64,000 nt of DNA from an uncultured Candidatus Saccharibacteria bacterium (lineage in GTDB: Bacteria; Patescibacteriota; Minisyncoccia; Phycocordibacterales; Phycocordibacteraceae), in assembly GCA_964546795.1 (NCBI GenBank), contig CAZJKG010000004.1, positions 18,994 to 82,993 on the forward strand, in the 5' to 3' direction. Positions 6,214 through 53,500 of this stretch are shown piece by piece. Position 1 is the first letter of the stretch; every line of letters begins with the position of its first letter. The notes under the pieces are model-generated. The model was not told the origin of the DNA. It saw only the letters and a list, made by a program, of their open reading frames with translations, and made no database searches. Position numbers and translations under genes: made by a program.

Positions 6214-6279
6214 AGACAGAGTATATCCTATGTATGTTAGGATTCAAGCACGTTACTTTACTTAAAATAATTCATAGGT

Positions 6280-10144: not shown

Positions 10145-10167
10145 CGGTGCGTTACAGTACAGATACA

Positions 10168-10241
10168 CCGCCCCTAGCTCAGCTGGTTAGAGCATCGAGC
10201 TTATACCTCGAGGGTCCTTGGTTCGAGTCCAAGGGGGCGGA
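10168..10241 (+). tRNA. tRNA-Ile (UAU)
   Basis: Acceptor CCGCCCC/GGGGCGG; U8A9; D arm GCUC-AGCUGGUUA-GAGC; anticodon stem UCGAG/CUCGA; loop CUUAUAC; T arm CUUGG-UUCGAGU-CCAAG; discriminator A. Confidence 0.8.
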
Positions 10242-10250
10242 CAAAACAAG

Positions 10251-12227
10251 TTATGCGATATCGCCTGCCTCCGCGGACAGGCCTGAACCGAGTGGCGCGA
10301 TGACGATTCCCTCTTCCTCGCGTTTTTTTGGCGTGATACCGTTGGCAATGAGTATCTTCTCAAATTCGGCGCGTTCAATAGTTTCCTTCTCGATGAGCTC
10401 CTTTGCGATGGCATCGAGCGCGCCGCGATGCTCGGTGATGACTATCTTCGCACGCGCTTTTGCCTCCTCAATGATACGCGCCACCTCGGCGTCTATCTCA
10501 GCCGCGACACGCTCGGAGTATGGCTCGTTACCGAGCTGTCGTTCGCCGAAAGCGATGGGTCCCATTTTCTCGCTCATGCCGTAGCGCACGACCATGTCGC
10601 GTGCGAGCGCCGTGATGACCATGAGATCATTACTCGGCCCCGTGGTTACGTCGTCAAAAAGCATTTCTTCCGCGACGTAGCCGCCGAGCGTCGCGGCGAT
10701 ATCGTCAAGGAATTGTTTTTTGGAATGCATCTTCCTGTCCTCAAAAGGAAGCTTCAATGTGTAGCCGGCAGCGCGCCCGCGACTGATGATGGAAATCTTA
10801 TGCACCGGATCGGCGTTCGGGAGCACCGAAGAAACGAGTGCATGTCCGGCCTCGTGATATGACGTGAGTTCTTTTTCCTTCTTGGAGAGCAGGTGGCTTT
10901 TGCGTTCCGGGCCGAGCATCACTTTTTCTATGGAGCGGATGAGGTCGTACTGTGTCACTTCGGTCCTGTTCTCCCGCGCTGCAAGAATAGCCCCTTCATT
11001 CATAAGCGAGTAGAGCTCGGCTCCTGAGAAACCGGGCGTGCGCTCGGCGATGACCGACAACGTTACATCCGGTCCCAAGGGCTTCTTGCGCGCATGTATC
11101 TGCAGTATCTCCTCGCGATCCTTCCTGTCCGGAAGGTCAATGGTAACGCGCCTATCAAAACGCCCCGGGCGCAACAATGCCGGATCAAGGACGTCGGGCC
11201 TATTGGTCGCTGCCATGACCACCACCTTTTCGGTTGGCTCGAAACCGTCCATTTCAACGAGTATCTGATTGAGTGTTTGTTCGCGCTCGTCATTGCCGCC
11301 ACCGACTCCCGCGCCGCGCACGCGCCCGACCGCGTCTATCTCGTCCACAAAAATGATGGCCGGGGCGGCTTTCTTCGCCAATTGAAAGAGATCGCGCACT
11401 CTTGAAGCCCCGACGCCGACAAACATCTCCACAAACTCGGAACCCGATATGGAGAAAAACGGTACGCCTGCTTCGCCGGCGACCGCGCGCGCCAAGAGCG
11501 TCTTGCCCGTACCTGGCGCGCCCATGAGGATGATACCTTTCGGGATGCGCGCGCCTATATCCAAAAATTTCTTCGGGCTCTTGAGGAAGTCCACGATCTC
11601 CAGAAGTTCTTCTTTCGCTTCGCGTGCGCCCGCGACATCCGCGAAGGTAACCCGCTGCGAAGAGTCGGCGGGGTCAATGACGCGCGCTTTTGATTGTCCG
11701 AAGCTGAAGGCCTGCATGCCCGCCCCCTTGACTTGTCGTGAGAGAAACCAAAAGAGAAACGCAATAAAAATAAGTGGCAGAAGAACCGGCGCAAGTGTGA
11801 GGAACCAGAATTGGAATCCCGATTGTCCTTGTATCGTGATGGACACTTTGGAAAGTTCCCCGGGCGTGACACCGTACGTCGCAAGCGTCTCCGGAAGACC
11901 GGCGGAAGGGTCCTTGCGTGACGTTTTATTGGAATCGTCGATGTAGACAAGTTTGAGTGAATCCCCGTTCACAATAATCGAACTTACTTTCCCCGCCGCG
12001 ACATCCGCCGCGACGACCGAGAGCGGAACATCGCTTGTCGGCTCCGTAAAACTCGCTATGAGCGAATACACGCTCATGAGGAGAAGGAAAATAAGAACCG
12101 TGGTTGTGAGATTGCCGAAAAACGAAGGGCCGCCCAAAAACGAGCGCCAGCCACGGCGTGCATTCCCTTTCAAATGAGAAGGGGGTGTCGCGCTCTGTTT
12201 CTGTTTCTTTGCCAGTACAAAAGACAT
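10251..12227 (-). CDS. ftsH: ATP-dependent zinc metalloprotease FtsH
   Basis: AAA+ Walker A GAPGTGKT; SRH region; HEAGHALV zinc-binding motif; two N-terminal TM helices. Confidence 0.95.
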
Positions 12228-35929: not shown

Positions 35930-35930
35930 G

Positions 35931-36003
35931 AGCCGGAGATCGGATTCGGACCGATGGCCTACCCCTTACGAAGGGGTTGCTCTACCAACTGAGCTACTCC
36001 GGC
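35931..36003 (-). tRNA. tRNA-Thr (CGU)
   Basis: Acceptor GCCGGAG/CUCCGGC; D arm GCUC-AGUUGGUA-GAGC; anticodon stem ACCCC/GGGGU; loop UUCGUAA; T arm AUCGG-UCCGAAU-CCGAU. Confidence 0.85.
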
Positions 36004-36025
36004 AGGTGAGTATATGAAGAAATTA

Positions 36026-36478
36026 TCATGATTTCTTCTTTCTAGCGAGAAGTTTTCCTTCTTGTGCCCGCTTACTTGGTGCCCGTGATGACCTTCCGTT
36101 TCCCTTATTTGAACCTCCATATGTTGGATTCAACGCATCGCAATTCGGACATACGAGACGGAGATTTTCTTCAGAATTATTACGCCAATTGCCATCAATA
36201 TGGTCAGCGACCAGCGGTACAAGATTTGTCTTTGGGTTAACTCTCGCCCACCCGCAGAGTAGACATCTGTTGTCGAACTTCTCCCGAAGATATTTCTTTA
36301 CCGGTTTCGAAACCAATCCTATAGAACTCAGACCGCTTATATTACCACTTTTCCATCGCTTTATATATTCCCGGTATTGGAATTCATGCTGACAATTATT
36401 ACTGCAATATCTGTAAAATGAGCGAGCAGGTTCTTTGTCGCATACAGGACATTTTGGTCTCGGTTTCTTCGGATTCAT
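36026..36478 (-). CDS. HNH endonuclease
   Basis: CPVCDK...C..NC zinc knuckle plus HNH core DHIDGNWRNNSEENLRLVCPNCDALN. Sits between two tRNA genes. Confidence 0.75.
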   Translation of the reverse strand: MNPKKPRPKCPVCDKEPARSFYRYCSNNCQHEFQYREYIKRWKSGNISGLSSIGLVSKPVKKYLREKFDNRCLLCGWARVNPKTNLVPLVADHIDGNWRNNSEENLRLVCPNCDALNPTYGGSNKGNGRSSRAPSKRAQEGKLLARKKKS

Positions 36479-36563
36479 TCATGCATTATAGCTGAAACGC
36501 AGACCATTTTTGTCATATAACAATGGTCGTATGTTGATAACGAAGTTGACCTACCTTTGATTC

Positions 36564-36824
36564 TGGAGCCGAGAGTCGGGATTGAACCGACGACCTCGTC
36601 CTTCGCTTTTACCTTCTCTCCTTATGCCGCGTAAAGAAGGGCTAGACTGTATCTTTGCCCCTAGGGGGCACCCTTGTCAGTCGTTCGGGCCTTCAAAAAG
36701 AGTGCCACGGTCTTGGCCAGCGGGGCTATTAACCGTTATTCGGGATTCATCCCAGTATTGCTATTAGGATGGGCGGAGTTTGCGACCCACCATGGACGTG
36801 CTCTACCAACTGAGCTATCTCGGC
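36564..36824 (-). tRNA. tRNA-Thr (GGU) interrupted by a 185-nt intron in the anticodon loop; CCA encoded
   Basis: Exon 1 is 36789-36824: GCCGAGA-UA-GCUC-AGUUGGUA-GAGC-A-CGUCC-AUGGU. Exon 2 is 36564-36603: AA-GGACG-AGGUC-GUCGG-UUCAAUC-CCGAC-UCUCGGC-U-CCA. Acceptor halves are exactly complementary, and the joined loop AUGGUAA is the canonical Thr loop. Confidence 0.7.
36604..36788 (-). other. Intron in tRNA-Thr(GGU), inserted between anticodon positions 36 and 37; group-I-like splice-site rules
   Basis: 5' exon ends in U36. Intron begins GGGUCGCAAAC and ends ...AAAAGCG with a terminal G. Length is 185 nt and it has no internal ORF. Fold not verified. Confidence 0.5.
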
Positions 36825-36842
36825 TTCATGCACCTCTACATA

Positions 36843-37439
36843 CTAACGGAGTTCTTTCATTCTTTCAATTTCGCCGATCAAAATATTACGTAATTTTTTA
36901 TTATTAAAATAAACAGTGAGCACTCCATGCTTGGACTTCGTCCGGTAAGTTCCGATACTACCAGAGCGAGTATTGATAATTTTATAGAACTGTCGTGGGG
37001 AAACTTTGAGAAAACGCTGCCAGAATTGTTCTTCTTTCACCTGATCCATATCGCGAAAAATTTGCAGGCCGAAACGAAGACGAGATTCATCAATAGCGTA
37101 AGCTTTTCTTAAAAAGAGGATGAAAGACCGTACTAGATAAGGATCGGTATTGCCAAGTCGTACGGATGTTGGGTTCATTTTAGTACCTTCACCCCAATAT
37201 AAACCGAGACCAAGACCGAAAAGAAATGATTCTTTATTTGTTCGGTGGATTTGAAGCGAAAAAGGATCTCCATGTGGATTGTGTTTCGTATATATCGCCT
37301 CGCTAATCGAACGCTTTGAAATAGAATATTTATCTAGCCAATAATTTATCTTTCCATCGGAACAATGAAATGCTTGAGCGATATCGTGCACCGATTTTCG
37401 ATCGCGAATGTACCAATGCTCCAACAATTTCTTATTCAT
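36843..37439 (-). CDS. LAGLIDADG-type homing-endonuclease-like protein with N-terminal HTH, free-standing
   Basis: FLFGLGLGLYWGEGTK is a LAGLIDADG-motif variant. N-terminal HTH-like segment (SVHDIAQAFHCSDGKINYWL). Paralog of 61048..61815. Lies immediately upstream of the intron-containing tRNA-Thr. Confidence 0.65.
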   Translation of the reverse strand: MNKKLLEHWYIRDRKSVHDIAQAFHCSDGKINYWLDKYSISKRSISEAIYTKHNPHGDPFSLQIHRTNKESFLFGLGLGLYWGEGTKMNPTSVRLGNTDPYLVRSFILFLRKAYAIDESRLRFGLQIFRDMDQVKEEQFWQRFLKVSPRQFYKIINTRSGSIGTYRTKSKHGVLTVYFNNKKLRNILIGEIERMKELR

Positions 37440-37502
37440 TACTGCTAGTATCCCAACTATGATCTATTTAGTAAAGTAGTACCTGTGGATATATAAACTC
37501 TA

Positions 37503-37832
37503 CTAATACAGCAACACCCCAATCACGACCACGCTGTTGAAAACAGCCATAAGCATGTTCGCGAAGAAAATATGTTTGTCTTTATGCACGGCGCCATATG
37601 TCGCCCAAAGCGTGTTAAATAAAATGAAAAGAAGCCAAGTCGGAAGCGCTAGTCCGGCACCGCTCTTCGTCGTATAGATTTGCAGGATTTGCGGCACGAG
37701 CGCCAGTGGCGCGAAGATGCCGACGCCGTACATAACATAATCAAGAGTGCGTTTCCACGCATTCTTAGATGGAAACGGTTCAAGACCATTTGTAGCACGA
37801 ATACGCGCCCCTATGTGGTGAAAACCGAGCAT
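37503..37832 (-). CDS. SemiSWEET / PQ-loop small transporter
   Basis: About 109 aa with three TM helices and the PQ motif LALVPQILQIY. Confidence 0.6.
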   Translation of the reverse strand: MLGFHHIGARIRATNGLEPFPSKNAWKRTLDYVMYGVGIFAPLALVPQILQIYTTKSGAGLALPTWLLFILFNTLWATYGAVHKDKHIFFANMLMAVFNSVVVIGVLLY

Positions 37833-37910
37833 GGATTAAGAGCTTCTTGTAAATATAGCACGACAAAACTCTCGCATCACGAGAAAAAATCTTTTTGGGG
37901 AAATACGGTG

Positions 37911-37984
37911 CGCGAGAGACGGGACTTGAACCCGCAACCTCCGCCGTGACAGGGCGGCGCTCTAACCAGTTGAGCTACTCCCGC
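37911..37984 (-). tRNA. tRNA-Asp (GUC)
   Basis: Acceptor GCGGGAG/CUCUCGC (G4:U69); D arm GCUC-AACUGGUUA-GAGC; anticodon stem CCGCC/GGCGG; loop CUGUCAC; T arm GCGGG-UUCAAGU-CCCGU; discriminator G. Confidence 0.85.
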
Positions 37985-38158
37985 AAGCGAGGAGAAATCT
38001 ACAAGCTCGCTTGTATGTTCTCCGAGCGCAGCGGGAGCAAGCTTGCCTCAAGCTTACTACCGCAGCATTCGGATGTATCCTACCAAAATCCTTTAAAAAT
38101 GTCGTGTGCGACCAAGAAAACAAGGAGCGGAGCGATTATGTTTTCTGAAGTACTCTTG

Positions 38159-38235
38159 TGGTGCCGGCGGAAGGACTTGCACCTTCGACCTTGGCTTTAT
38201 GAATGCCATGCTCTAACTACCTGAGCTACGCCGGC
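38159..38235 (-). tRNA. tRNA-Met (CAU), elongator type; CCA encoded
   Basis: Acceptor GCCGGCG/CGCCGGC (G1-C72); D arm GCUC-AGGUAGUUA-GAGC; anticodon stem UGGCA/AGCCA; loop UUCAUAA; T arm GAAGG-UGCAAGU-CCUUC; A73 then CCA. Confidence 0.8.
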
Positions 38236-38344: not shown

Positions 38345-39883
38345 TTAGGCGGCAAGACCGGGGAAAAAATCTGTTTTAATGGCGAAGCGCGAAATACCAA
38401 GATTGATAAGCACGACTTTCATCACGTCCACCATGCCGGGCGGGCCGGAGACATAGAACAGACGTTCGGCATAATCGGGAACTTCCTTTTTTATGAGCTC
38501 GGCATCAATGAATCCCTGATGGGTGCCGGGGAGGATTGGGGTTTCGCCAGAAATAACATAGACGGTACGCCAGCCGAATCGTCCCGCATTCGTGAACACG
38601 TCCTGATAGGCGATCTCGTCTGTTTTGCGACTGGAATAGAGCAATATTGCGTCACGCGACTCTCCCGCAGCTATGCAATGCCGCGCCATGCTGGCAAAGG
38701 GCGTTACACCGATACCGCCTGCAATGAAAACAAGTTTGCGTTCCTTATTTTCCGGCATTGTGAATTCGCCCGCAAGCGCGGTGGCGGAAATAACTCCCCC
38801 TACGGGAAGCTCCGCGAGCGTGCGCTTGAATGCACTCGGTTTGTCGTAGAAACGTACTCCGAGCGCAAGCATCATACTCTCGGGTGCCGACGCGATGGTG
38901 AAGAATCGACGATTGCCGCGGGTATCATTCGGCACCGAACCCAGCGTCCATTCAAGATATTGCCCGGGTGAAAAACTGAGTTGGCGATTGCTACGGAACA
39001 TATATTCGTAGATACCACTCGCGAGGGGATGGCGTTCAACGAGAGAAAGCGTATAGCGTCCCTTCGGACTCACGACATAGGAGAACAGATTTCCCACGAT
39101 GAGGGAGAATTCGGGAGAAAAATAGAAAGAACCGATATGCGGTGCCTGTATAAAGAGAGTGCCGATCAAGACGCCGTAGACAACGCGGAGCACGCGCGTG
39201 GGCGGCGTCGTGAGCGGCTCGGTGAGCATCACGAATGCGAAGAAGAATAAGACGGAATAGAGGAGCGTGGCTTGTATTCCGGCAATGGGATTGGAAGAGG
39301 TGAACGCAACGGCGGCGAGGGCGGCAATACCAAACGAGAGTACGAGGTCAAAACGTCGCAGTTTGTAAACGACGATCAATCCGCCGACAACAACAAAGGG
39401 GAGAAGTGCGGTATTCCCTGCGACCCACCACGACGCGGAAACACCGAGTACGAATGTAGAGAGTACCGCGGCGAGCGCGGCTGGATTGAATACATGTTTC
39501 TTCCATGGAGCAATGAGATATTTTGGTGCGATCGCCAGTAGCGCAATCACCGCAAGTCCTGCGGTTCCCACTGCATCGGTGGGCATGACCGACGGCATAA
39601 TGAGCGTAAGTATGAATGCCGTAATATAGATGGATTCAGTATTGGTGACTGCACAAAACATCCAAGCAAAGAAAGTGTTGGCCGCCCGTGACGCGGTTAT
39701 AAGAACCCCAGCCGACCAGAAAAGTGCGATTGGAGAATAAGGCAAGACACCAATTGCGCCAAAACAGAGCGCGGCGACAAAAAGCACGAGCAGATAATAG
39801 AGCATCAACCGATACGTCGTCGTACGGTCTATGAACTCTTTCAGTACTTTCTCTCCCCAGACGAAAGTGTTATTCCCCGGCAT
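38345..39883 (-). CDS. Membrane-bound FAD/NAD(P)-binding oxidoreductase (ferredoxin-NADP reductase-like C-terminal domain fused to a polytopic membrane domain)
   Basis: About 300 aa of TM helices, then RRFFTIAS (RxYS-type FAD site) and GGIGVTPFASMARH (NAD(P)-binding GxGxxP). Confidence 0.65.
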   Translation of the reverse strand: MPGNNTFVWGEKVLKEFIDRTTTYRLMLYYLLVLFVAALCFGAIGVLPYSPIALFWSAGVLITASRAANTFFAWMFCAVTNTESIYITAFILTLIMPSVMPTDAVGTAGLAVIALLAIAPKYLIAPWKKHVFNPAALAAVLSTFVLGVSASWWVAGNTALLPFVVVGGLIVVYKLRRFDLVLSFGIAALAAVAFTSSNPIAGIQATLLYSVLFFFAFVMLTEPLTTPPTRVLRVVYGVLIGTLFIQAPHIGSFYFSPEFSLIVGNLFSYVVSPKGRYTLSLVERHPLASGIYEYMFRSNRQLSFSPGQYLEWTLGSVPNDTRGNRRFFTIASAPESMMLALGVRFYDKPSAFKRTLAELPVGGVISATALAGEFTMPENKERKLVFIAGGIGVTPFASMARHCIAAGESRDAILLYSSRKTDEIAYQDVFTNAGRFGWRTVYVISGETPILPGTHQGFIDAELIKKEVPDYAERLFYVSGPPGMVDVMKVVLINLGISRFAIKTDFFPGLAA

Positions 39884-39902
39884 TATACCCTACTATAGCA
39901 GT

Positions 39903-40904
39903 ATGATTCATTATTTTGGGGGCGAACCGTGGGAAACGGATTATGTGCGCGCGAAGCTCCCAAACGAAAACATTGTTTTCCATGATGGCTCTATCGCGGC
40001 ACACCCGGACGCTGCGGATTCTAACGCATCGATGCTCTGCATCTTTGTAGAGGCACACGTCGGCGAGGACGAGCTCAAGCGATTTCCCGCCGTGAAGCTC
40101 ATCGCAACCCGGTCAACCGGCTTTGATCATATTGACCTAAGCGCGGCGGCCGCGCGCGGTATCACCGTGGTAAATGTTCCCTCGTATGGCGAGAACACCG
40201 TCGCCGAATTCGCGTTCGCACTCCTCCTCGCGCTCTCACGCCGCATTATTGACGCCGATGAGCGCGTGCGCGAGACCGGCACCTTCTCGCCGAGCGGGCT
40301 ACGTGGCTTTGACCTCGCCGGGAAAACCATCGGCGTCATCGGCACCGGTCATATCGGCATTCATGTTGTCCGTATGGCACAGGGCTTTGGCATGAAAGTC
40401 ATCGCATGCGATCCCTACCCGAATACGGAACTCGCCCGAACACTTCATTTTAACTACGTTCCTCTTGGTGATTTGCTTGCGGCCTCCGATATCGTCACTA
40501 TCCATGTCCCCTACAACAAACAAACGCATCATCTCATCAATAAAGAGAATATAAGGAACATAAAGAAAGGTGCCTATATCATAAATACCGCTCGCGGTGC
40601 GGTCATGGAAACACAGGCGCTTATCGAAGCACTGGAGAGCGGAATAGTCGCAGGTGCCGGACTTGACGTGCTGGAGGAGGAAGGTCAGCTAGCGGAAGAA
40701 GTGGCGCTTCTGACCGCACCACATCCAAATGAAGAAGGCCTCAAAATGGTGCTCGAAAATCACTATCTTATCAGCCATCCGCGCGTCATCGTGACGCCGC
40801 ACTTGGCATTCAATACGACGGAGGCCGTAGAGCGCATCCTCGATACGACCATAGAGAATATAGAGAACTTCAGAGCCGGCTTGCCGACCAACATCGTTAC
40901 ATAG
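39903..40904 (+). CDS. D-isomer-specific 2-hydroxyacid dehydrogenase
   Basis: GKTIGVIGTGHIGIHVVRMAQGFGMKVIACD Rossmann motif; catalytic region ...ARGAVMET...; typical length. Start moved to the internal Met to avoid overlap with the upstream gene. Confidence 0.85.
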   Translation: MIHYFGGEPWETDYVRAKLPNENIVFHDGSIAAHPDAADSNASMLCIFVEAHVGEDELKRFPAVKLIATRSTGFDHIDLSAAAARGITVVNVPSYGENTVAEFAFALLLALSRRIIDADERVRETGTFSPSGLRGFDLAGKTIGVIGTGHIGIHVVRMAQGFGMKVIACDPYPNTELARTLHFNYVPLGDLLAASDIVTIHVPYNKQTHHLINKENIRNIKKGAYIINTARGAVMETQALIEALESGIVAGAGLDVLEEEGQLAEEVALLTAPHPNEEGLKMVLENHYLISHPRVIVTPHLAFNTTEAVERILDTTIENIENFRAGLPTNIVT

Positions 40905-40952
40905 GGCTATATACAGATACCTGCACATACGCATGCGTGCAATATGGTGACC

Positions 40953-41000
40953 GAAGCCATCCACAACTTGTAGCTATAGCGACAAGTTGTGGATGGCTTC
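40953..41000. repeat. Palindromic repeat, copy 1 (48 bp, one mismatch)
   Basis: gaagccatccacaacttgtagctatagcgacaagttgtggatggcttc. Core shared with copies 2 and 3: tccacaacttgtagctatagc(t)acaagttgtgga. Confidence 0.9.
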
Positions 41001-41021
41001 TGTTTTCATCTATCATCTATT

Positions 41022-41606
41022 TTATTCAAAAGGGAGTGCAAAATACTCGCGCAAGTACTTGTCGCGTTCGAGACGTTCGACAATCATATACAATACATCG
41101 GCACCGATACGGAAATTAGTTTTCACCAAGGCGATGAGATCTTCACAATCATACGGATAGATCCACACGCTGTCCTGAAGTCGTACGAATCCGTATTCCC
41201 CCATAAAACGTCGGAGACGGGTTCGTATGCTTTTGCGTTTCTCAGGAATATCAAATATGACCACTCGCCATCGTCGATCCCATTTTTTCTTTTCTTCCAT
41301 TATTCCTCGCTCGGTTTCTATCTGGAGCATTCGTTTCCCTTTTTCAGTTATACGTGCATAACGTTTACCGTTTTCTTCTACAAACACGACGCATCCTTTT
41401 GCTGCAAGGCGCCCGAGTGCGGACTTTGCTTGATAGTTAAATTTCGCACCTTTTTTGTATCCAGGAAAATATTTGAGGAGCCGGACGGCGTTCGGCATCG
41501 TTGCAGCAATCAACACCACTCCGCCGACCGCAGCCGCAGCAAGCAACGTCTGTTGAAATATGCCCCATCTTCTTTCCCTTTTTACATCCTTTTCCATCAT
41601 TCCCAT
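41022..41606 (-). CDS. PaaX-like transcriptional regulator (wHTH plus Cas2-fold PaaX_C-like domain)
   Basis: wHTH-like LGRLAAKGCVVFVEENGKRYARITEKGKRML. C-terminal W..VVIFDIPEKRKSIRTRLRRFMGEYGFVRLQDSVWIYP matches the PaaX C-terminal/Cas2-like pattern. Flanked on both sides by the palindromic repeat. Confidence 0.5.
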   Translation of the reverse strand: MGMMEKDVKRERRWGIFQQTLLAAAAVGGVVLIAATMPNAVRLLKYFPGYKKGAKFNYQAKSALGRLAAKGCVVFVEENGKRYARITEKGKRMLQIETERGIMEEKKKWDRRWRVVIFDIPEKRKSIRTRLRRFMGEYGFVRLQDSVWIYPYDCEDLIALVKTNFRIGADVLYMIVERLERDKYLREYFALPFE

Positions 41607-41626
41607 CCGACTATTCTACCGCTCAC

Positions 41627-41668
41627 ACTATCCACAACTTGTAGCTATAGCTACAAGTTGTGGATAGT
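41627..41668. repeat. Palindromic repeat, copy 2 (42 bp, perfect)
   Basis: actatccacaacttgtagctatagctacaagttgtggatagt, located 21 bp upstream of the PaaX-like start codon. Confidence 0.9.
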
Positions 41669-41843
41669 ACGCATAGATTAGATTAATATGGCGTGAATGG
41701 ATAGAATGTTCGACAGAATCTAAATGGGCTGGAAGAAGATCTGGGTCACATTGATGTGGATGATGGATAGTAGGAATGCTGTATGTAAAATGTAGGGGTT
41801 TTGGTTCCTATGACACTTTGAGATGATGTTCCCAGATGGTTGT

Positions 41844-41875
41844 CTCGGATTTTTGCCTACAGGCGAAAATCCGAG
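41844..41875. other. Hairpin-forming inverted repeat between palindrome copies 2 and 3
   Basis: ctcggatttttgcctacaggcgaaaatccgag: 10/11 complementary arms and a self-complementary loop. Confidence 0.6.
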
Positions 41876-41909
41876 GCAGATGTGAACATGCAATGTACGT
41901 GTGATGACT

Positions 41910-41945
41910 ATCAACAACTTGTAGCTATAGCTACAAGTTGTGGAT
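41910..41945. repeat. Palindromic repeat, copy 3 (36 bp, one mismatch)
   Basis: atcaacaacttgtagctatagctacaagttgtggat. Confidence 0.9.
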
Positions 41946-42030
41946 GGTTGTACTAACTTAGTGAATGAGTATGGCTTGGGGGTATAAAAGAGAGCCGCCG
42001 CGTCGGGAGACGCGGCGAGTTAGAACGGTT

Positions 42031-42714
42031 TTATGTGCTTTGCTTTGATTCGTCCGGCTGCTTTTTGATTTGCTCAGCCGGCTTCTGTTCGCTTGGCTTC
42101 TTCTGTACTTGCTGGAAAATCGAGAAGGTAAAGACCCGATATGGAAGTATCATTTGGGCGAATTCCTCCGGGGTAATCGTCTCGTTTGCAGCGGCTTTGT
42201 CGATCCATGCATATACCAGTACATCTGGTTTTGGTATGAACACCATACCGAAGAAGTTTTGGTCACCGCGCGTTACGTAACGAAGCGAATCCGTTGCGAC
42301 TGCACCAGAACGAAGTTCACCCATAATGTGCCAACCGCGTAATTTTTCTTTTGCACTGGAAGAGAAGACGAAAATGGTTGTGAATTGAACCTCCTTTTCT
42401 TTTCCATCTTCCCCCACGATCAGCCGCGAACCGATTTGTTCCAGGTATACCGCTTTGTCCGCCGGTGGATTCTTCCAGAGATTGCGAATAAACGTCACTG
42501 CGCTGTCCCCAGAATTGATACTCGGGATACCTGCTCCCCGGTACATTCTGTCACCGTTGATGCTAAGAATCACGAGATTTTTTGTAATCGAACCTTCAGG
42601 AAGAAAAATCGCTCTGGGAGACACTTTTTCGATCCCTTGTTTCGGTTCCGAGGCGCATCCCGCACCGAATATCACCAGAAACAGAACGAGCGCTGGCTGT
42701 AGCATGGGAATCAC
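42031..42714 (-). CDS. Lipoprotein (hypothetical)
   Basis: Signal peptide with lipobox VIFGAGC; C-terminal Lys/Gln/Pro-rich tail. Confidence 0.55.
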   Translation of the reverse strand: MIPMLQPALVLFLVIFGAGCASEPKQGIEKVSPRAIFLPEGSITKNLVILSINGDRMYRGAGIPSINSGDSAVTFIRNLWKNPPADKAVYLEQIGSRLIVGEDGKEKEVQFTTIFVFSSSAKEKLRGWHIMGELRSGAVATDSLRYVTRGDQNFFGMVFIPKPDVLVYAWIDKAAANETITPEEFAQMILPYRVFTFSIFQQVQKKPSEQKPAEQIKKQPDESKQST

Positions 42715-44516: not shown

Positions 44517-47500
44517 TTAATGGGAGATTTCTCTGAACTTCGGAGGCCCCGACAATACCTTCACCGTGAGCGGTACGTCAACCGATCTCGTGATGCCTGC
44601 CGCAAGGCCGGTGACGCGCACGACGTATGTTGTAGCGGGGTCAAGCGTTGCGCCTGCGGCAAAGTGTAGCACGGGGACGGTGCCGACTGCGTATTCTTCG
44701 GGAGAGAAGGAGTCCTTCTCGAGGGTGACAGTGACTCCCTCGACCGCGGGGACGAGCTCGGTAGAAAGAACAATCGTCGTGGCGAAGCCGCCTTGCGCGA
44801 TTCCCCATACACGCACGTCCTTCGGCACCACGGACGTCGTACCGCCGGAACGAGAGACCTCAAAGAGTCCTTCGGAGCGTAGGAGGTAATTCGATTCTAT
44901 GACCGATACGGTAACTGCGTCATCCACTGTGCCGGTTTGATTTGAACAGGTCAACGTATACGTGGCCGTTTCCTGCAGATTCGAAATCGTCTCGGTGAAG
45001 GTGCCGTTGGCGGTCTTTGCGCCAGACCAGCTGCCGGAGGCGAGACAGCTGTCTGCATTTTCAGAAGTCCAGGTTAGGATTATTGATTCTCCTTGGTTTA
45101 TTGTCGTTTGATTGGCAGAGAGAGTTACTGTCGGGAGTACGGATGGCGGAGGAATAATGGATTCGCATGAAGTATTATCGGCGCTTTGTATGAATCCTGG
45201 GTTGCAAGTCCACCCTAGATAATATGTAGTGTCATTGCATGAGCCCGCAGGAGATGAGGAACAGAATTGCTGTCCCACAAAAGAGGAGTTTGCGGGCTTC
45301 ATCGTGACCGCTCCAGATGGTTTGACAATATTGCACAGATTGAAACATTGGTCTGTCACGGTCACTATAGGTGCCGTACTGGGGATATTAGGAATATCTT
45401 GAATAAAGGAATAAGGAGGCGCATACTGAAGTGAAGATGGCTCAGTAGTATCTACTATTGGTGCCGGACCAAGATAATCAAGTTGCTGATCTCCAGAAAC
45501 ATAACCAATGAAAGCCGCCGCTACAGTACCAGTTACATAACCAGGGAGAGCTAACCCGACAAGGCTAGCACCGCGCTGGAGATTGAGTGAGATGGTCGTC
45601 TGGTCCACTACAGAGTTTATTGCGAGACCGGTAGCTTCAGCACCAAATCTTATAGCTTTATTATGATCGGATTCGAGACAACCACAGAAAAAATTAGTAA
45701 CAGATTTTAACTTAACAATTGTTGATGAAAAGAGTCCTAATTCACTTCGTTCAATCCCCTGGGGCGGATTCCATATTGTGCTTGAATGGAAAGCCACTGC
45801 GCCAACAAAATTTCGATCTATAGCTTGAATTTGCGCATCAATGACACCAAGATCATGTGATAATTGACCAATTCTTGCTTGCAAAAATTCCGGAAAATTA
45901 GGGTCATTAGGGCCCATGACGTCCACGATTTTCTCAAGAACCATGTTAAAATTAAAAGCAGTAAGTGCCTTATCTGCTTCTAGCATAAACCTCCTTATTG
46001 CTAATTGCGCAATATTTAGAGATGTTCTGTCTTCAATTTTGACGCTGTCGACAAGCATCGGGAAGTTTGCTTGTGTTCGATCGGAAAGTTCACGAGCGGC
46101 TTCCGCAGTTAGAGGAGGAAGCTGTTCTGAAAGAACATCTAGTTTTTCTAGTGATGGTGCACTTTCCACGGCATTTATCTCCGAGACCCTGACTTCCAGT
46201 TCGTGAGGCACCTCTTGCGTAGGCGCTAGGCCAAGTTCAGATTTTAATGAAATATTTTGTCTCTCTTCCATCATTTCAGGGGTCACAAGACCTCTTTCCA
46301 AAAGCCAATTGAATTCCAAATCAACTAACTCGTTAGCTGCTACATTACGAGCTACTTTCAAATCTTCTAAGTTTTGTTTTCTTGTGTCCGAAATAGGTAT
46401 ATTGAAGGCCTTCCTGATAGCTGTGCCTGCTTCCGTGTCAGTAATTCGTTGATCGAGGTCCTGAACAAGTGATTTCTTTCCAACTATTTCTAGTGAGAAT
46501 AATTGTTCTGTCGCCTTATCAAACTCTATTGCTCTCAGTTCCGCTTGTTCGGATTTTAATGCGCCAACCCGATCAGAAACATTTATCCTCTCATCATCTG
46601 TAAGCAAGTTATATTTACGACCATATTGTCGGCCCATTGCATTTAATTCATTTCCTATTTCAATCAATCTCGGACCTTCAAGCCCATTCTCCTTAAGCCA
46701 GATGCCCTTCAAAGAATTTGACTCTTTATACAGATTACTCAGATTCTCTTGGACTTCATCAAGTCGTATTTCTAGGTTGATACTAAATTCTCCGCTCCTT
46801 ATCGAATTTATATCCGTTGGGAGTAATGCTGCAGCCAAGGCCTCATTTGCAGCAATCTCCCCGTCTACCTTTAGAATACTTGAGGGGACGCTGTAACGAA
46901 CATTTTGAGAATTGGCATCTGCAAATGCTATCGTTATTAATTCTGCTGCATGAGCATTATTCTCAGTAATTGCAGTTACGTTTTCCACCACAGTATCAGT
47001 TTTTGCACTGTTAAAGCGCAAAGATGTTGCTTGAGGTAGTTCGGCTTTCAAATCCGCAAGTAATAATCCTACGTTTGGATCATAGGGGATTATATGCACA
47101 TCATCAAGAACCGCAAAGTTTTTCCCTTGTGCGTCTTCAACAGAAATCAAGGGTAATAAGCGTGTTACCCCATCCTTACCGGTTTCACCACTGAATTCTG
47201 GAAATAGTATTCGGAAAATCTGACTCTCTGGATTTAATGTCAATCCACCGCCGCAATCTTGAGATACAGCATTAAGGCCTTCGCCAAGCGAGAAACTCCT
47301 TCCTGGTGTTTGTGCAGGCGACAAATCAGATACATCATTAAGAGCCACTCCTCGCGGAACGATTGAACAGAACGTATTTTGCGCTGGAAGTTTATTAACG
47401 GCGACACGGGATATAGTATTTCCCTTTGCAAAAGAAGAGATGGGCGAGAAGAGATTTTCACCTTGTTTCAAAATATCATTTAGTGCAAAGTGTGAGAACG

Positions 47501-50500
47501 AAGTATCTTCCTTTTTCGCAAGACGTATGGCGTCCCAATTTTCAAAGCCAATGCCAGTGGTTCCATTGATATCGGCCGAGAACGCAAAGCGTTCTTTATC
47601 TTCGGAAATGGCTTTCAAGAGAAGTTGGTCGCTGACATCCTTTACTTTAGGATCAATGAGACGAATTCTGTCACCATCGGGATTTTGCGTGCGCGTGATA
47701 AAACCGACATCCACGTGAGTATTCCCTTTTATCCCTCCGTAATCTTTCTCGCCAATGAGTCCGACTTGGGTTAATGCGAAATCAAGCGCGTCTTGGAGCG
47801 GCATCCCAATCGCGGCGTAGAACTTGCTTAACACATTCATAAGGACGCTCGCTTCCACAAACGCAAGGTCTTCGGAGTCCCCAATAATAGGAGATGCTAT
47901 TGTGCCATCGGGATTGACCTGAAGTGTATCGCGTACACTTTTCCACGTATCACTTGTATCATTTTGATCATACACAAAAGAGGGATAAAGCGCGTCATGC
48001 ACCAATTCCGCCATATCGTTCGCGGACTTACTTGCCAAATGGGACTGAGTTAGGAGTATATTACTGCCAAGCTTATCAACTGGCTCAATGAAAGGTTCGA
48101 GATAGGTATTCAAGGTCGAGAGTTTCTTTAGGTAATCAATGTTGAAATCAGGGACGCCATACGTCTGTTGCAATCCGGCAAGCGTAAAGTGCGGGGTCGC
48201 CCAGAATACAAATCCTTCAGGATCGGCAGATGGAGGAAATATAGCGTTAATGGAAGGAGGAATCGAGAAACGTTGAGTTCCTGTTGGTGTGGCGAAGCTC
48301 TGAACCAAGAAATAGGCCCCGAAAATGCCATTGGTGCCGGTTGCGTATGTCCCAAGTGTTACCGGAGAGACCGTATCGGTAGAATCCGTTATTTGTCCTG
48401 CAGTTGCGCCAAGTCCTTTCATAAGTCCGAGGGGCTCAATGAAATACAGCTTGCCGAAAGTATCTTTAAATCCTACGGACGCGTGTCCGGTGCCTGCCCT
48501 ATCGACAATCGGTCCGGCTTTATTGACAAATGCCGACATCGTTCCTACGCGATTTGCGGCATCAGTATTCCCTACGCGCAGGAACAGATTTCGGATCAAA
48601 GCATAAACGAGAATGGCGGAATCATCGCAGTCGCCACCCTTGCGCGCAAGGGTCTGGAACGGCAGCTGGACATTGTCGTAGCGCGCATCAAAACTCGGCG
48701 TATCAAAGAGATAGGTAATTAAATTCAAACTATAGAAATATTTATAGAATTCTTTGATAAGCGCAATCTCGCTTTTCGCCTTTAAATCAACTCCTTTGGC
48801 TGTCATATCTTTCTCAAATTGATCAAGGAGCAAAGCGATTGACGGATCGGTATACGAATTCACTTCATCAAGGGAGAAGAAACCACCTCTTCCGTTATTT
48901 ATCGTCGAGTTGTAGTGGTAGGTCTTGCTGCTATTCGCATCGATAAAAAGACCAGGGCCTTCAAAGGTGGAATCCCATATGTCATGGCGTCGTTCAAACG
49001 CAAGCATGTCATCGTAGCTTGTCGCTCGAAGCATTCGATTGACGCTTGCTACATCCGTCATGTCAATAAATGCCGAGTGCAGGGAACCCATACGCACTGC
49101 GCCGGGCATGATATAAAATCCCTTGAAGTATCCTGTCTGATCCTGACCGGTCCATGCCATCGCCGTCGTCTCAAGATCAAGGTCCGATGTCCATGATTTG
49201 GCCGCCCCCCACGCTCTATATTCAATCGCGTAGATCGCCTGCACCATGCGGCGCGTTGCGTCAAGCCATGCGGTCTGACGCTGAGGGTCCTTAGCGGAGT
49301 CCGTACCGATTGTCTCAAGCCGATTTTTGTAGGATTGCAAAAGATTCTTGGTTACCTGATACAGCGCTTCTTGTTCAGACATACTTACCGGGATGCCGAG
49401 GGATTCAAGGATTTTGATTCCCATATCGCGCTCCACGAATGGGTTCTGGTAGGTGAATTCTTCGGCGGTGTCGGATTGGCCGGGCAGTATTCCCTTCAGT
49501 TTATACCGCACGGTGCGCTTCAGTACTGATTCCTGATTGAAAATCCTGTACGTGGAGACCGTATAGGTTGACGCATCATCGCTGTAGGTATAGCGGTATT
49601 CGGTCCACGGTTTCCCTTCTCCGTCAAAATACCGGATAGTACTTGCCCGCGCCCCGTCAAATACCACTTCCGAAACCAATTCTTCCGCAGGACTGTACCC
49701 CTTGTATGACAACACGGTGAATGCCGCCGTATCGGCGTATTCGTAGACACCTCTACTGAGGAGCGAGCCGTCTGTTTGGTATTTGTCGATTTCGGCGGTT
49801 TTCAGATACCCACTTGGGTGATACGTGTAGCGGGTCTTTGACGTAACGTCGCCTGCGGCACTGTAGAGAAGACGTTCCGCGCCGGAACGCAGCCGCGTGG
49901 GCGTGTAGAAGAACGTATTTTGCGAGCGGAGCTGCGGCGTGTCCCCCGCATAGAGGGGCACCGTGTGGTACACCAATTCATTGTCTTCCAGAGAATACGT
50001 CCGTACGGCCCCCTGGCGGTTCCGCAGAGAAAGACCGACGGTCTCGGAATCATACGTGCCGTTCACGTAATCAATGAGTGTCTTCTCCGACAGTTGTCCG
50101 TTCGTAATTTTTGTCTTGCTGCTTGAAAGGAGCGTGCTGGGGCTCTGCGTTTCGGAGATAATAGTGTTTTCACCGGTCGCTTTGCCGTTTGCATCATAGG
50201 CGGTCTCGGTAAATGAATACTTCGGCTCGGGCGTTTGCGTGTAGGTGCGGACCGACGCGAGCGTACCATCCGCGCCATAGGAATACAGGTGCTTCTCGTA
50301 GCGATTCGCATCGTAATACAGCAAGTCGTCAGAGAGTTGGCCGTCGGGACGATACGTGTAGTTCTTGGACCATTCGTATGCGTTCGTCTGCACATTGAAG
50401 ACGTGGGAATACTGGAGTTTTCCCTGTTCGTCGTAGCGATTATAGCGTTCGCGATCGCCGCGGCGCATGATTTCTTTCCGTATCGTGCCGCTGGGGTAGT

Positions 50501-53500
50501 ACAGCCGGATGTCTTTTTTGGTGACGCCGTCGAGGCCGTAATTAAATTCTTTTTCGGGGCTTCCCTGCTCGCCATAGAACACCTCGCCGGTCTTCGTTGT
50601 GCCGTCCGGAGCGAATATGGTCGTAGAGAGGAGAGAGGAGGTTGAGATATTGTTGCTAGCGTAGGTATTGATAAACGCGACGGTGCCGTCCAGACGGATG
50701 AATGTCTTGGATGCGGGCGCGGCTGATATGGCCGGTTCAGTCGGAGCCGTCAGCGCCGGAGTCGGCAGAAGTTCTATCGATGGGACAAGTTCTCTGAGCG
50801 GCGTCGTTATATCAATGACTGGCGCATCGGCTGGCACATCCGCAAATGCGGCGGTGACGGAGGGGATGCGATTGCGAGTAACTTTTACCGTGCATGATCC
50901 GACTCCCCTACAATCCCCGGTCCATCCGATGAAACGCCCTCTGTTGTTTGCGTAGGAAGCAAGGGTTACTAACTGGTCGTCCGCAAAAAGGCCTTTGCAT
51001 GTTCCCGAGGAACAGGTGATTCCCGAAGGATTTGAGATAACGCTCCCCGAGCCGCGAACCGATACCCGCAATTCAGACACGCCGGACGCAAAGAGAGGTC
51101 TAAAGAGATATGATCTATCCATCTTGAGAGTGCAGAGATCGGTGCTTGGATAACATTCCGATCCGTTCCATCCGATAAACGAGTTTCCTTTTTCAGCGAC
51201 CGGAGTCAGGGTAACGAGCGACCCCACAGGGAATACTGCAGAACACGTCCCCGGACAATCAATGCCGGAAGGAGATGACTTCACGCGCCCTTGTTCTGTA
51301 GTAAGACCTTCTATTGAAATTGAGGGGCGCAGTGTGAAATTGAAAACTGGTCGATTTCCACTAAGGGAACCACATCTATTACCATAACAGTAGTACTCTC
51401 CATTATTAGGGCCATTAAATGCTCCGCCGGCATCAGGATATACCATAACAATCGAAGGTTTACTAAAGCTCGGCGTCGAGCAGACAGGCGGGCAATTAAT
51501 TCCTTTCCCCGTAACATGGCCGCTTCCATTCACCACGACGGAAAAGTCAGACGGTTGTGATCCAGCCCCTCCAATATCAAAAGCGAGCTGCAGATTTTTT
51601 GAGACCTTCACGGTGCATTTCTTGTGCGCCGTTTTCTGTTCCGCGTCTTCCGCACATGGAGAAGGCGTGCTGTACCTATAATTCGAATTGTCCTGTATGT
51701 CCGCCCATGACCATATGACAGTATCGCTGTAGCCGGACCCGGGAAGCATTATAAGCGTTACGTCATTATCCGTTGTAAATGTGGTGCTGCACACTGGGGC
51801 GTCCGATCTAATACCTCCTACTCCTCCAACACCTCCAACACTTCCAACACCTCCTCCCTGCCAACTGCAATTCATTCCCAGCGGATCAGAAATAATGCGC
51901 CCGCTGCTGCCTAGATAAACAACAGATCCGGCGTCCAAACTAAGGGTGCTTACCGTATCACCCCATGCTTCAAGCTCGTCAAGCGCAAAAACAATTGAGC
52001 TATTAAATTCGTCTTTGGCGTCGGGGAAACGCTCCGTCGTTAAACTCCCCGAACCCGTCGCGCGGACGCGCATCTGCGTCACCCCCTCCCACGAACCGAC
52101 CGCTTCAAGCTGTTTTTTTGTATCGGTTGCCTGGCGGGCTATGGGGTTGTTTCTCATCGGACTCTCGTAGGTCGCGACGTCTTTCCAGGCGCCGGACTGG
52201 AACACGGAGAGCGTTATGGTGAAATTCGCGTTGGCGATATAGTTCGGACTTGAGAGGAAGAACATTCCTTCCGTCGGAGCAATGGCTTTAATGCTCTTGA
52301 GCGAAACAGATTTATTGAAATTCACCGTCGCTTCATACGTGAATGAACACGGACTCGATGGAAGCAGGAGACAGAGTCCGTAGTTGCCGACCTGATTGCC
52401 CTGAATGCCGTCTTTGACTCTTGAGAAATTCCTGTAGCGCTCGGAGAATACGGGGTCTGTAGGCATTGACCACGCCGGGCCCGTGAATTGCTGACTGCCG
52501 GTTATCGTTGAGGCGGGATCAAGCACTCGGTTTGGAGCCGACGCTTGATATGTTTTGTCGCTAAAAGATGCAAGGACTTTGAATTCCGAACCTGCCGAAG
52601 GAAACTTGCAGGGACCAAGAGCGGAAAGACATGGTTGCGACCAACCGAGGAATGCTCCTTTTGTCTCAACGGCATCCAAACTCACGGCACCGATATTTCC
52701 GAATTCGGCGGTGCAGCTCACGTTCGGGCAGTCAATGCCCGCCGGAGTGGATACGACGCGGCCGACTCCGTCAAGCGTTACCGAGAGTTTTGTTTTCCCG
52801 AATTTCGCTTTCACGAAACGGTCTTTTGAAAAACTAAAGACGCAGGAAAAATTCGGATATTGCCAGAGTCCGGGTTTATTTTGTGCCGCGTTCCATCCGG
52901 TGCGATAACAGGCATAATCCGATGCTTCCCAGCCCAAAAATACAGAGTCATTCAGTGGGGTCTCGGTAAGATACTGACTCGTAAAGCTGCCGTATTGAGA
53001 ATAAGGAAATAGTGCTCTACAGGTCGGCGGACAGCTAATGCCCGCGGGAACCGATGTTACTTTCCCGTCCCCAACCACCAAGACAGAGATGGAGATCGGT
53101 TCCCCTATTTGGATCGGTTTTGAATATATGTCCAATGTCTTATCCCCGTCCATGGTAATGGTACAGGAGGGGAACGTCGTACCGCTGCATGTTCCGCCCC
53201 ACCCGAGAAATCTTCCTTGAGTACTGACTCCGTCCTGACTGTTATAGCCAAGATTGTATGTAGCGGTTGTAACAGTGCCGGGCGGAAAACGTACTGAGCA
53301 AGTTGATGTCGCTTCAACGCCAGAACCATTATTGAAAGAGCAGCCGTCTAAGGTTCCTGGTTGGAACAGGATGCCGCCAGAAATTGATTCGCCGGGCTTC
53401 AACTTCATGGACAGCGTCAACGTTTTCCCGCTGCCAAAAACGGCTTTCGCTGTTTTATCGCCATCAAGGGTAATGACACACCTACTGAACCAACTCTCAT

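Follow-up and report, generated by a model that had tools for sequence, protein, structure and literature searches.

Cas2 is a stand-alone protein of ~90-100 aa encoded beside cas1 and a CRISPR array. RAYT transposases are flanked by their own REPs, elements that are also found clustered in E. coli, as BIMEs. In PaaX, the regulator linked to phenylacetate catabolism (paa), the C-terminal effector domain PaaX_C binds phenylacetyl-CoA. E. coli PaaX is a repressor at every known target; its operator is TGATTC-N27-GAATCA, and it represses its own promoter by steric hindrance (PMC9493321). Here we compare these systems with a locus of an uncultured Candidatus Saccharibacteria bacterium, in which a gene for a small PaaX-like protein lies between copies of a long palindrome. 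By "the window" we mean the whole 64,000-nucleotide stretch of DNA that was analysed.

Three palindrome copies around one gene

A preliminary description of the window had reported three palindromes sharing a core, at 40953-41000, 41627-41668 and 41910-41945. Both the positions and the core were correct, and in a common 42-nt register the features of the locus are the following:

39831-40904, plus strand: 2-hydroxyacid dehydrogenase gene, convergent with the regulator gene
40956-40997, no strand: palindrome copy 1 (downstream site), 42-nt register, 88% identical to copy 2
41022-41606, minus strand: regulator gene "mini-PaaX" (194 aa), between copies 1 and 2; its product comprises a probable winged helix-turn-helix (~residues 14-87), a linker helix and the Cas2-like PaaX_M domain (~residues 107-190)
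41613-41618, minus strand: probable -10 box TAGAAT, read from the sequence, ending 6 nt before the ATG
41627-41668, no strand: palindrome copy 2 (presumed main operator), 42 bp
41841-41878, plus strand: separate hairpin with an 18-bp stem, found by inverted-repeat search; not a palindrome copy
41907-41948, no strand: palindrome copy 3 (presumed auxiliary operator), 95% identical to copy 2
42031-42714, minus strand: upstream gene, with a terminator flagged at 42018-41995 by an intrinsic-terminator scan

The palindrome consists of outer hexamers, TATCCA-N26-TGGATA, and a conserved inner part, TTGT..CTATAG..ACAA. Copy 2 is perfect, as had been claimed, its 21+21 arms matching fully; it does lie upstream of the start codon, but ends 20 nt rather than 21 bp before the first ATG (41606). 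Copy 1, rightly placed just past the stop codon, begins 24 nt after it in the 42-nt form, or 18 nt after it in an extended form in which self-complementarity reaches 27-nt arms (40950-41003, 93%). With the 2-hydroxyacid dehydrogenase gene converging on the regulator gene, it sits between the two stop codons, 671 nt downstream of copy 2. Copy 3, just inside the terminator of the upstream gene, had been put 240 bp further upstream, beyond a hairpin; the hairpin (41841-41878) is indeed in between, and the gap to copy 2 is 238 nt (280 nt start to start).

When the window was searched with the 30-nt core, allowing up to three mismatches, exactly three matches were obtained (0 in 100 shuffles), and the 14-nt half-site was found solely in the six arms (0.22 expected). 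Another assembly of this organism, independent of the first (L001), has the same three-copy arrangement. Copy 3 is the sole extra cognate copy within 10 kb either side of ~80 family loci, and is thus peculiar to this genome. Scanning the exact core against 185,579 species genomes gave no match, a result that is little informative because the site sequence is lineage-specific. Inspection of the sequence and its repeats revealed no direct repeats flanking the palindrome copies. We also considered a replication origin or terminus at the locus, and a remnant gene in the 238-nt spacer between copies 2 and 3; both were rejected, as GC skew shows no switch there and the spacer has no homologue in the fetched loci except in the same organism. 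As for the separate hairpin, it folds better as plus-strand RNA (-29.5 kcal/mol, with G-U pairs completing the stem) than as minus-strand RNA (-20.2), and has no homologue in the other loci and no Rfam family; it may form the 3' end of a short transcript of the plus strand, heading away from the regulator gene.

A protein between PaaX and Cas2

We examined the regulator, whose public annotation begins three codons later (P0001, 191 aa), using profile and structure comparisons. The Cas2-like central domain of PaaX, PaaX_M (Pfam PF20803), matched at 68.8 bits (E = 4.4e-19, cut-off 24), while PaaX_C (PF08223) was absent by Pfam, the protein stopping at residue 194, right behind the central domain. 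The NCBIfam PaaX model (TIGR02277) scored 38.5 bits against a cut-off of 264.55, far below equivalog level, and its alignment put residues 61-157 on profile positions 38-133, spanning the recognition helix and wing. The AlphaFold2 model (overall pLDDT 73, replacing an earlier one from a shallow alignment that was set aside at pLDDT 53) shows, at pLDDT above 85, a helix and then a beta hairpin across residues 63-86. In the Foldseek ranking for this model, E. coli PaaX (8a39, E = 2e-4) came before Rv0674 and then Cas2 proteins; 3kfw also matched.

Confidence is low for the first 60 residues of the model (pLDDT below 50 at residues 6-60), and the PaaX N-terminal Pfam model found no match in the regulator at E < 0.01. 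A membrane anchor at hydrophobic residues 15-37 was considered and rejected: family members have K/E inside this segment (e.g., LETVKVAG), and in an alignment to a winged helix it corresponds to helix 1, strand 1 and helix 2, a part where the model is poor.

Most likely, then, the regulator is a PaaX-type protein cut down to a winged helix-turn-helix and a Cas2-like dimerisation domain. It resembles PaaX of E. coli and Pseudomonas in having PF20803 behind a probable winged-helix region, and differs from it in lacking the effector domain and a paa context. Its neighbours in the window are the 2-hydroxyacid dehydrogenase, an NQR/Rnf-like oxidoreductase and proteins without a family match, with no paa gene among them; a PD-(D/E)XK nuclease gene was looked for in the window and not found. 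The term PaaX-like used in the preliminary description therefore fits the central domain, but not the missing PaaX_C, the gene context or the equivalog score.

Database entries often label members of this family "CRISPR-associated endonuclease Cas2". The C-terminal half does have the ferredoxin-like Cas2 fold and keeps the strand-1 aspartate (D119, at the end of the strand), which occupies the Cas2 metal-binding position and is invariant in the family; the cas2 model TIGR01573 is just passed (27.9 vs 24.5). However, this match spans 38 residues only, and mini-PaaX, at twice the length of Cas2, has a probable DNA-binding domain in addition. No cas1 was found among the called genes around L001, L003 and L006. 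The window has no CRISPR array and no spacer-separated, CRISPR-like direct repeats, its other repeats all being internal to a 4,691-aa gene; the palindromes do not form spacer-separated arrays, in agreement with the earlier statement that they are not CRISPR. The Cas2 label is not supported by this evidence.

Palindrome-bracketed genes across Patescibacteria

Homologues of the regulator, 71-87% identical, are found across Patescibacteria, and we compared 79 related Patescibacteria loci (37-82% identity). In ~80% of the family genes a palindrome lies upstream and another right behind the stop, the latter, as a rule of this family, having no counterpart in PaaX. Of 86 genes, 71 have arm complementarity of at least 12/17 on the upstream side, and of 87 genes, 67 have it on the downstream side, as opposed to 22 of 600 background windows; the downstream centres lie 12-82 nt past the stop, mostly 20-47 nt. 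The palindromy is perfect over 42 bp here, and in L063 it reaches 58 bp. The family has many paralogues and is, unlike PaaX, confined to Patescibacteria; clustering at 50% identity gives at least 484 groups (E <= 1e-30), and clustering at 90% gives more than 4,000. A gene bracketed by its own ~40-bp palindrome is thus a recurrent arrangement in a large, undescribed regulator family of Patescibacteria.

Each protein is associated with a palindrome of its own. Within a locus, the identity between upstream and downstream copy is 0.83, compared with 0.47 between loci, and paralogues within one genome bear different palindromes, as in L003, where one paralogue's own site is TGTATCAAATT..CCTATAGG. 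When the loci are grouped, a shared recognition-helix sequence goes with a shared arm sequence. Arm similarity follows the winged-helix region (rho 0.51, partial 0.36) more closely than the Cas2-like domain (partial 0.15). The 6-bp centre is nearly invariant (CTATAG, or CGGTCG/CGACCG). Such a centre, together with 42 bp of perfect palindromy, exceeds what a two-hexamer operator would need.

Gene contexts vary among the relatives, which adjoin rpoD, PD-(D/E)XK nuclease, RNase HII and ComEC genes. Sites also occur away from family genes: the dispersal check that the preliminary description had proposed found the core confined to the locus within 64 kb, but related genomes carry a few further copies, adjoining genes for a PD-(D/E)XK nuclease, RNase HII, ComEC and DprA, among others, as well as aminoacyl-tRNA synthetase and IF-2 genes. 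A 693-kb contig contained 4 strict site matches, and ~1.2 Mb around 80 family genes contained 3 stray sites. Some of the sites away from family genes (L123, L135, L139) lie just upstream of full TTGACA-N17-TATAAT promoters, with their centre at ~-58, and some, as in L125 and L130, have convergent genes on their two sides. Tandem arrangements of palindromes of different types are frequent (L090 6211-6328, L107, L130, L135, L144). With so few sites at other genes, a small regulon seems more plausible than a REP-like swarm, and the enrichment of DNA-metabolism genes beside them is suggestive. Among 2.9 million viral contigs there was no site match and one partial protein match only, on which grounds we discarded phage or plasmid cargo as an explanation.

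Predicted operator function and its alternatives

The palindromes hold a fixed register with promoter elements across the family. At the regulator gene, TAGAAT lies 9 nt past copy 2 and ends 6 nt short of the ATG, which points to an mRNA without a leader and to autoregulation; as read from the sequence, the transcript would start at or next to the A of the ATG. TAGAAT, TAGGAT or TAAAAT stands at the same distance in L003, L007-L012, L016-L018, L020, L024, L026 and L028. When -10-like hexamers were counted relative to site centres, 18, 11 and 11 matches fell at +5, +9 and +29, the background being 2.1 at each offset. Copy 2, whose centre is at -41.5 when counted from the A of the ATG, covers the expected -35 position. 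The upstream palindrome is centred at ~-41 in close relatives, where the downstream site abuts the next gene's -10 box (centre ~-35), and at -17 in distant paralogues, where the proximal arm includes TATAAT and terminates in the ATG itself.

Taken together, these results lead us to propose, with a probability of roughly two in three, that the palindrome is the cognate duplex-DNA operator for the product of the gene lying between copies 1 and 2, and that it is autoregulatory. The comparison shows a specific association of protein and palindrome throughout the family and its set register with promoter elements; binding itself, the regulatory sign and looping we infer. The protein would bind as a dimer, with one recognition helix on each outer hexamer (TATCCA and TGGATA, 26 bp apart), assisted by the inner TTGT..CTATAG..ACAA through extra contacts or bending. 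As copy 2 covers the -35 region of the promoter with the TAGAAT box, its occupancy would control the regulator's own leaderless transcript, most likely through repression by steric hindrance, as in E. coli PaaX. The likeness to the PaaX operator is one of geometry and position only: both operators measure ~39 bp, with two inverted hexamers about three helical turns apart, and both place a site over the regulator's own promoter, autoregulation being known for PaaX and predicted for mini-PaaX; the mini-PaaX hexamers differ, and its spacer is palindromic and conserved, with a near-invariant CTATAG/CGGTCG centre. The autoregulatory operator offered in the preliminary description as one of two readings is therefore well supported by the family-wide layout, the co-variation with the winged helix, the PaaX geometry and the -10 box register.

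Our best guess for copies 1 and 3 is that they are auxiliary operators, which could act by looping with copy 2 or by increasing occupancy locally; the downstream copy of relatives may also gate the next gene's promoter. A promoter site accompanied by copies 280 nt upstream and 671 nt downstream recalls the looping repressors of lac (O1/O2/O3) and gal (OE/OI), except that the downstream mini-PaaX site is found past the end of the gene and not within the first structural gene, and that looping and oligomerisation beyond the dimer are only putative here. The downstream copy is kept in the window and at 23 other loci where the next gene is convergent; there it cannot be a promoter operator, and looping is a guess.

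The same sites could also serve an activator. The protein would then bind them and activate its own promoter, in class II style like CRP, which would agree with copy 2 being centred exactly at -41.5 from the inferred start, with the lack of a -35-like hexamer at proper spacing from TAGAAT, and with the sites of L123, L135 and L139 upstream of complete promoters. Against this speak the repression of all known E. coli PaaX targets (PMC9493321) and the repressor geometries in the family, where sites cover the -10 box and start in distant paralogues or abut the next gene's -10 box in close relatives; we regard activation as unlikely. The inferred centres, at ~-17, -35, -41.5 and -58, are not uniform, so the regulatory sign may differ among sites. 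Even less probable, in our judgement, is that the elements work as RNA hairpins, be they terminators, stabilisers of mRNA ends or targets of a Cas2-like ribonuclease. Copy 1 would form a very stable hairpin (-41.5 kcal/mol on the plus and -38.3 on the minus strand, z-scores -9.4 and -7.9), is the sole structured element between two convergent genes and is followed by UGUUUUCAU on the plus strand. The invariant 4-nt core (TATA, GGTC or GACC) is closed by a C:G pair and resembles the loop of a hairpin, since its GGTC and GACC forms lack self-complementarity. Yet the upstream copies lie outside the inferred transcript, given a -10 box 6 nt before the ATG, and the mismatches between arms are uncompensated, which makes duplex recognition the better fit: among 73 sites of this type, G-T wobble is possible in just 44 of 325 arm mismatches, and the low-information positions -13 and -12 differ in 51 and 47 sites, respectively. 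Moreover, an ordinary terminator follows the downstream palindrome in L003 and L026, the downstream copies at convergent loci have no U-run behind them on the regulator strand, and the Rfam search gave only generic hairpin matches, none near the gathering score. Canonical intrinsic termination was rejected for the palindromes of the window as well, as the scan flags 42018-41995 but no palindrome, and none is followed by a U-run on the regulator strand.

The other reading of the preliminary description, in which the palindromes are REP/MITE-like, would make the bracketed gene a mobilising enzyme, its Cas2-like domain acting by analogy as a nuclease on the extruded hairpin. As in REP/RAYT systems (REPINs, BIMEs), the gene has palindromes of its own on both sides, each paralogue has a separate palindrome family, and additional intergenic copies exist, some between convergent genes and some in mixed tandem clusters reminiscent of E. 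coli BIMEs; the module also stands in differing genomic contexts among relatives, and D119 is invariant. What the protein matches, however, is PaaX and Cas2 and no HUH/Y1 or other transposase-type enzyme; the sites are few per genome, in contrast to tens to hundreds of REPs (three in 64 kb, all at the regulator); the stem is not kept by compensatory change; the register with -10 boxes, and even with the start codon, is fixed; and the family is missing from the viral contigs bar that single partial match. This reading is poorly supported, and we hold it to be very unlikely. A related possibility, to which we give slightly less credence still, is that palindrome-gene-palindrome forms a self-contained duplicating module, whose Cas2-like domain, by means of its invariant aspartate, would cut or join DNA at the invariant 4-nt centre of an extruded cruciform or hairpin. 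This would account for the bracketing of every gene, the one palindrome per paralogue and the mixed tandem arrays and, if true, would reveal an unknown REP/RAYT-like or recombination system with a Cas2 fold, specific to Patescibacteria.

Patescibacteria (the Candidate Phyla Radiation) do not grow in culture on their own and, to our knowledge, their gene regulation is almost wholly uncharacterised. The operator reading would give every protein in this large family of small regulators a concrete predicted binding site, and such sites could allow regulons to be predicted straight from metagenomes. Tentatively, the theme of the regulon is DNA uptake and processing (Cas4-like PD-(D/E)XK nuclease, RNase HII, ComEC, DprA). 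More generally, this family indicates that the long PaaX-type operator geometry predates phenylacetate catabolism and occurs more widely.

Palindromes and neighbouring features in the window

The preliminary description had reported three near-perfect palindromes bracketing a PaaX-like regulator gene, and our analysis of the window recovered all three as 42-nt copies. The relevant features are listed below.

35930-38235, minus strand: tRNA cluster (Thr-CGT, Asp-GTC, Met-CAT), just upstream of the studied region
40956-40997: palindrome copy 1, 42 nt, 88% identical to the middle copy
41022-41606, minus strand: regulator ORF, 194 aa, Pfam PaaX_M
41627-41668: palindrome copy 2 (middle), 42 nt, perfect, 21-nt arms
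41702-41707, plus strand: TAGAAT, a sign of a possible short divergent transcript
41724-41795, plus strand: 23-codon ORF, MGWKKIWVTLMWMMDSRNAVCKM
41841-41878: separate 18-bp hairpin between copies 2 and 3
41907-41948: palindrome copy 3, 42 nt, 95% identical to the middle copy
44517-58592, minus strand: giant ORF, 4,691 aa, with three tandem internal repeats of ~1.33 kb each (54.5-58.4 kb)

The 30-nt core occurs exactly three times in the 64 kb (allowing up to 3 mismatches) and had no match in 100 shuffles, and a 14-nt half-site is restricted to the six arms of the three copies. Copy 1 extends its self-complementarity to 27-nt arms (40950-41003). No CRISPR-like array is present in the window, and we detected neither a GC-skew switch at the locus nor an Rfam match near threshold in the window.

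Between copies 2 and 3, a short plus-strand transcript may run away from the regulator gene (41702-41878); the hairpin at 41841-41878 folds better as plus-strand RNA (-29.5 versus -20.2 kcal/mol) by virtue of G-U pairs. In two relatives (L003 and L006), the region upstream of the regulator gene carries a small hydrophobic ORF on the opposite strand. The window has seven tRNA genes overall, and its giant ORF is followed by two small ORFs; very large proteins of this surface type are frequent in Patescibacteria.

Bracketing palindromes across the family

Many Patescibacteria have homologues of the regulator that are 71-87% identical to it, and a profile search returned a large set of clusters: more than 4,346 at 90% identity, and 484 at 50% identity with E ≤ 1e-30. 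A search of the full-text literature found no paper describing the family or its sites. We refer here to our own set of 79 loci from species-representative genomes (37-82% identity to the regulator), all of them from Patescibacteria (Kaiser-, Nomura-, Zambryski-, Adler- and Niyogibacteria, Paceibacterota and others). Their flanks share a near-universal layout, with a 34-42-bp palindrome shortly 5' of the start and a second directly 3' of the stop. When a palindrome was called at ≥12/17 complementary arm positions, the upstream element was found at 71 of 86 family genes and the downstream one at 67 of 87, against 22 of 600 random windows from the same loci. Likewise, 58 of the 97 long palindromes in 1.25 Mb sit no more than 130 nt from an end of a family gene, the remainder mostly resembling ordinary terminators. 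The downstream copy is kept despite a convergent next gene at 23 loci with a clear site. In L003 and L006 (genes 10001-10585), L025, L124 and L143, dnaG-rpoD (primase and primary sigma factor) lies directly 5' of the regulator gene, which has a different setting in the window; the module has thus changed neighbourhood with both palindromes kept.

The palindromes are specific to their regulator: the two at one locus share an identity of 0.83, compared with 0.47 between loci, and paralogues within one genome bear different palindromes. On the L003 contig, for instance, gene 10001-10585 has a ATCCACAA-type palindrome, and gene 5671-6252 is flanked on both sides by TGTATCAAATT..CCTATAGG. When loci were sorted by protein similarity, a shared recognition-helix sequence went with a shared arm sequence.

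Recognition helices and the palindrome arms that accompany them
Recognition helix: RFNYQAKSALGRL; arm: ATCCA
Recognition helix: NLKYSINxSFTRL; arm: TTACCTAA
Recognition helix: RQKEFINxSRxRL; arm: ACGTTA

Arm similarity correlated with winged-helix similarity (rho 0.51; partial 0.36 with the Cas2-like domain controlled for) and more weakly with the Cas2-like domain (partial 0.15), values that are meaningful in direction only, since locus pairs are not independent. The site centre, CTATAG in most cases and CGGTCG or CGACCG in most others, is nearly invariant even across groups with different arm specificity. In a logo built from 146 window-type half-sites, a conserved TATC(C/A)A on the outside is followed inward by a pair of variable positions, then by a conserved TGT and the invariant centre; 26 bp separate the outer hexamers. 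E. coli PaaX, which represses its own promoter through steric hindrance, binds TGATTC-N27-GAATCA (PMC9493321), so the unusual palindrome length would reflect the requirement of a PaaX-type dimer. In contrast to the E. coli operator, the spacer here is itself palindromic and conserved, which is the new feature.

The sites also stand in register with promoter elements. For the window and its closer relatives, TAGAAT (or TAGGAT, TAAAAT) lies ~9 nt past the site and ends 6 nt before the ATG, leaving no room for a ribosome-binding site and hence implying a leaderless mRNA; copy 2 is then centred at -41.5. Distant paralogues have their site centred at -17, with TATAAT inside the proximal arm and the ATG itself as the palindrome end. 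The -10-like hexamers around 148 distinct sites show peaks at +5, +9, +21 to +23, +29 and +46 from the centre (background 2.1 hits per offset). Close relatives of the window gene frequently have the downstream site immediately next to the -10 box of the following same-strand gene (GGATAGTCTATAAT); in 12 loci that following gene encodes a PD-(D/E)XK nuclease.

Could the palindromes instead be maintained as RNA stems? Copy 1 would form a very stable hairpin (-41.5 and -38.3 kcal/mol), and no other structured element lies between the two convergent genes there; it may have terminating the dehydrogenase transcript as a secondary role. The upstream copies, however, fall outside the inferred transcript. 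Among 73 sites of the window's type, the arms differ at position -13 in 51 and at -12 in 47, G-T wobbles are possible for only 44 of 325 arm mismatches, and the half-site variants ATCCACAACTTGT and ATC(C/A)AAGACTTGT recur; judged by sequence, this pattern is that of degenerate positions in a protein half-site rather than of a selected stem. REP/MITE-like elements, the other reading originally offered, are unlikely. The family-wide layout, regulator-specific palindromes, the covariation of arm and winged helix, a PaaX-like geometry and the promoter register all support operators, as had been proposed for autoregulation here, and this reading can be extended to a large family. By analogy with lac O2 and O3, the downstream copy and copy 3 would serve as auxiliary operators.

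Sites away from the family genes

Copy 3 of the window was the sole extra cognate copy within 10 kb either side of ~80 family genes, and it is peculiar to this genome. The idea that the site is confined to its locus holds within the window, with its three copies, but not on related metagenome contigs: a degenerate pattern scan returned 68 stretches, and ~44 full palindromes among these do not adjoin a family gene, proportions that are biased because the scan selects for sites. On a 693-kb contig, four strict matches comprised two flanking the gene and two elsewhere (L123, L131). Stray sites are frequently immediate neighbours of palindromes belonging to other paralogue types. At L090, three palindrome types follow one another with no spacer between them (6211-6328; centres CTATAG, CGGTCG, CGGTCG), directly 5' of a 286-aa PD-(D/E)XK nuclease gene with Cas4-like cysteines, with a DUF262-like gene before and a RecD/Pif1-like helicase gene after; several paralogous regulators appear, by prediction, to converge on one promoter. 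A further palindrome type, AATGTCCTTATTATTGACGACCGTCAAAGATAAGGACATT, is present in two copies on a 7-kb stretch of one contig that also has a window-type site (L104 4680, 7591, 11136), giving a local density of family-type sites of up to ~1 per 4 kb, and was also seen in L099 and L151.

According to mechanical ORF calls, gene starts facing stray sites include those of ComEC (several contigs), DprA, RNase HII, a PLD-type nuclease, a LexA-methylase fusion, aminoacyl-tRNA synthetases and IF-2; some sites sit between convergent genes (L125, L130). A theme of DNA uptake and processing is a lead only.

Identity of the regulator

The 194-aa protein matches Pfam PaaX_M ('PaaX central Cas2-like domain', 4.4e-19) and has no Pfam PaaX_C domain. 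Its AlphaFold2 model (85-sequence alignment, pLDDT 73) shows a confident helix-plus-wing at residues 63-86, followed by a linker helix and a ferredoxin-like domain (113-188), with residues 6-60 poorly modelled. Foldseek against the PDB ranked E. coli PaaX first (8a39, E = 2e-4), followed by M. tuberculosis Rv0674 and several Cas2 structures. Charged residues in family members speak against a membrane anchor in the hydrophobic stretch at residues 15-37; we read this stretch as the putative helix 1, strand 1 and helix 2 of the winged helix. The label 'PaaX-like' fits only in part, through domain and fold, and on DNA the protein is predicted to act as PaaX does. It is nevertheless distinct from PaaX, since the effector domain is missing, no paa genes lie nearby and the equivalog score is 38.5 bits against an NCBIfam cut-off of 264.55.

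Nor is it Cas2. The cas2 model TIGR01573 scores barely above cut-off (27.9 versus 24.5 bits) and covers only 38 residues, and because this partial match passes, relatives are often called 'CRISPR-associated endonuclease Cas2' in public records. This looks like a systematic mis-annotation, and 'orphan cas2' genes may be overcounted in Patescibacteria as a result.
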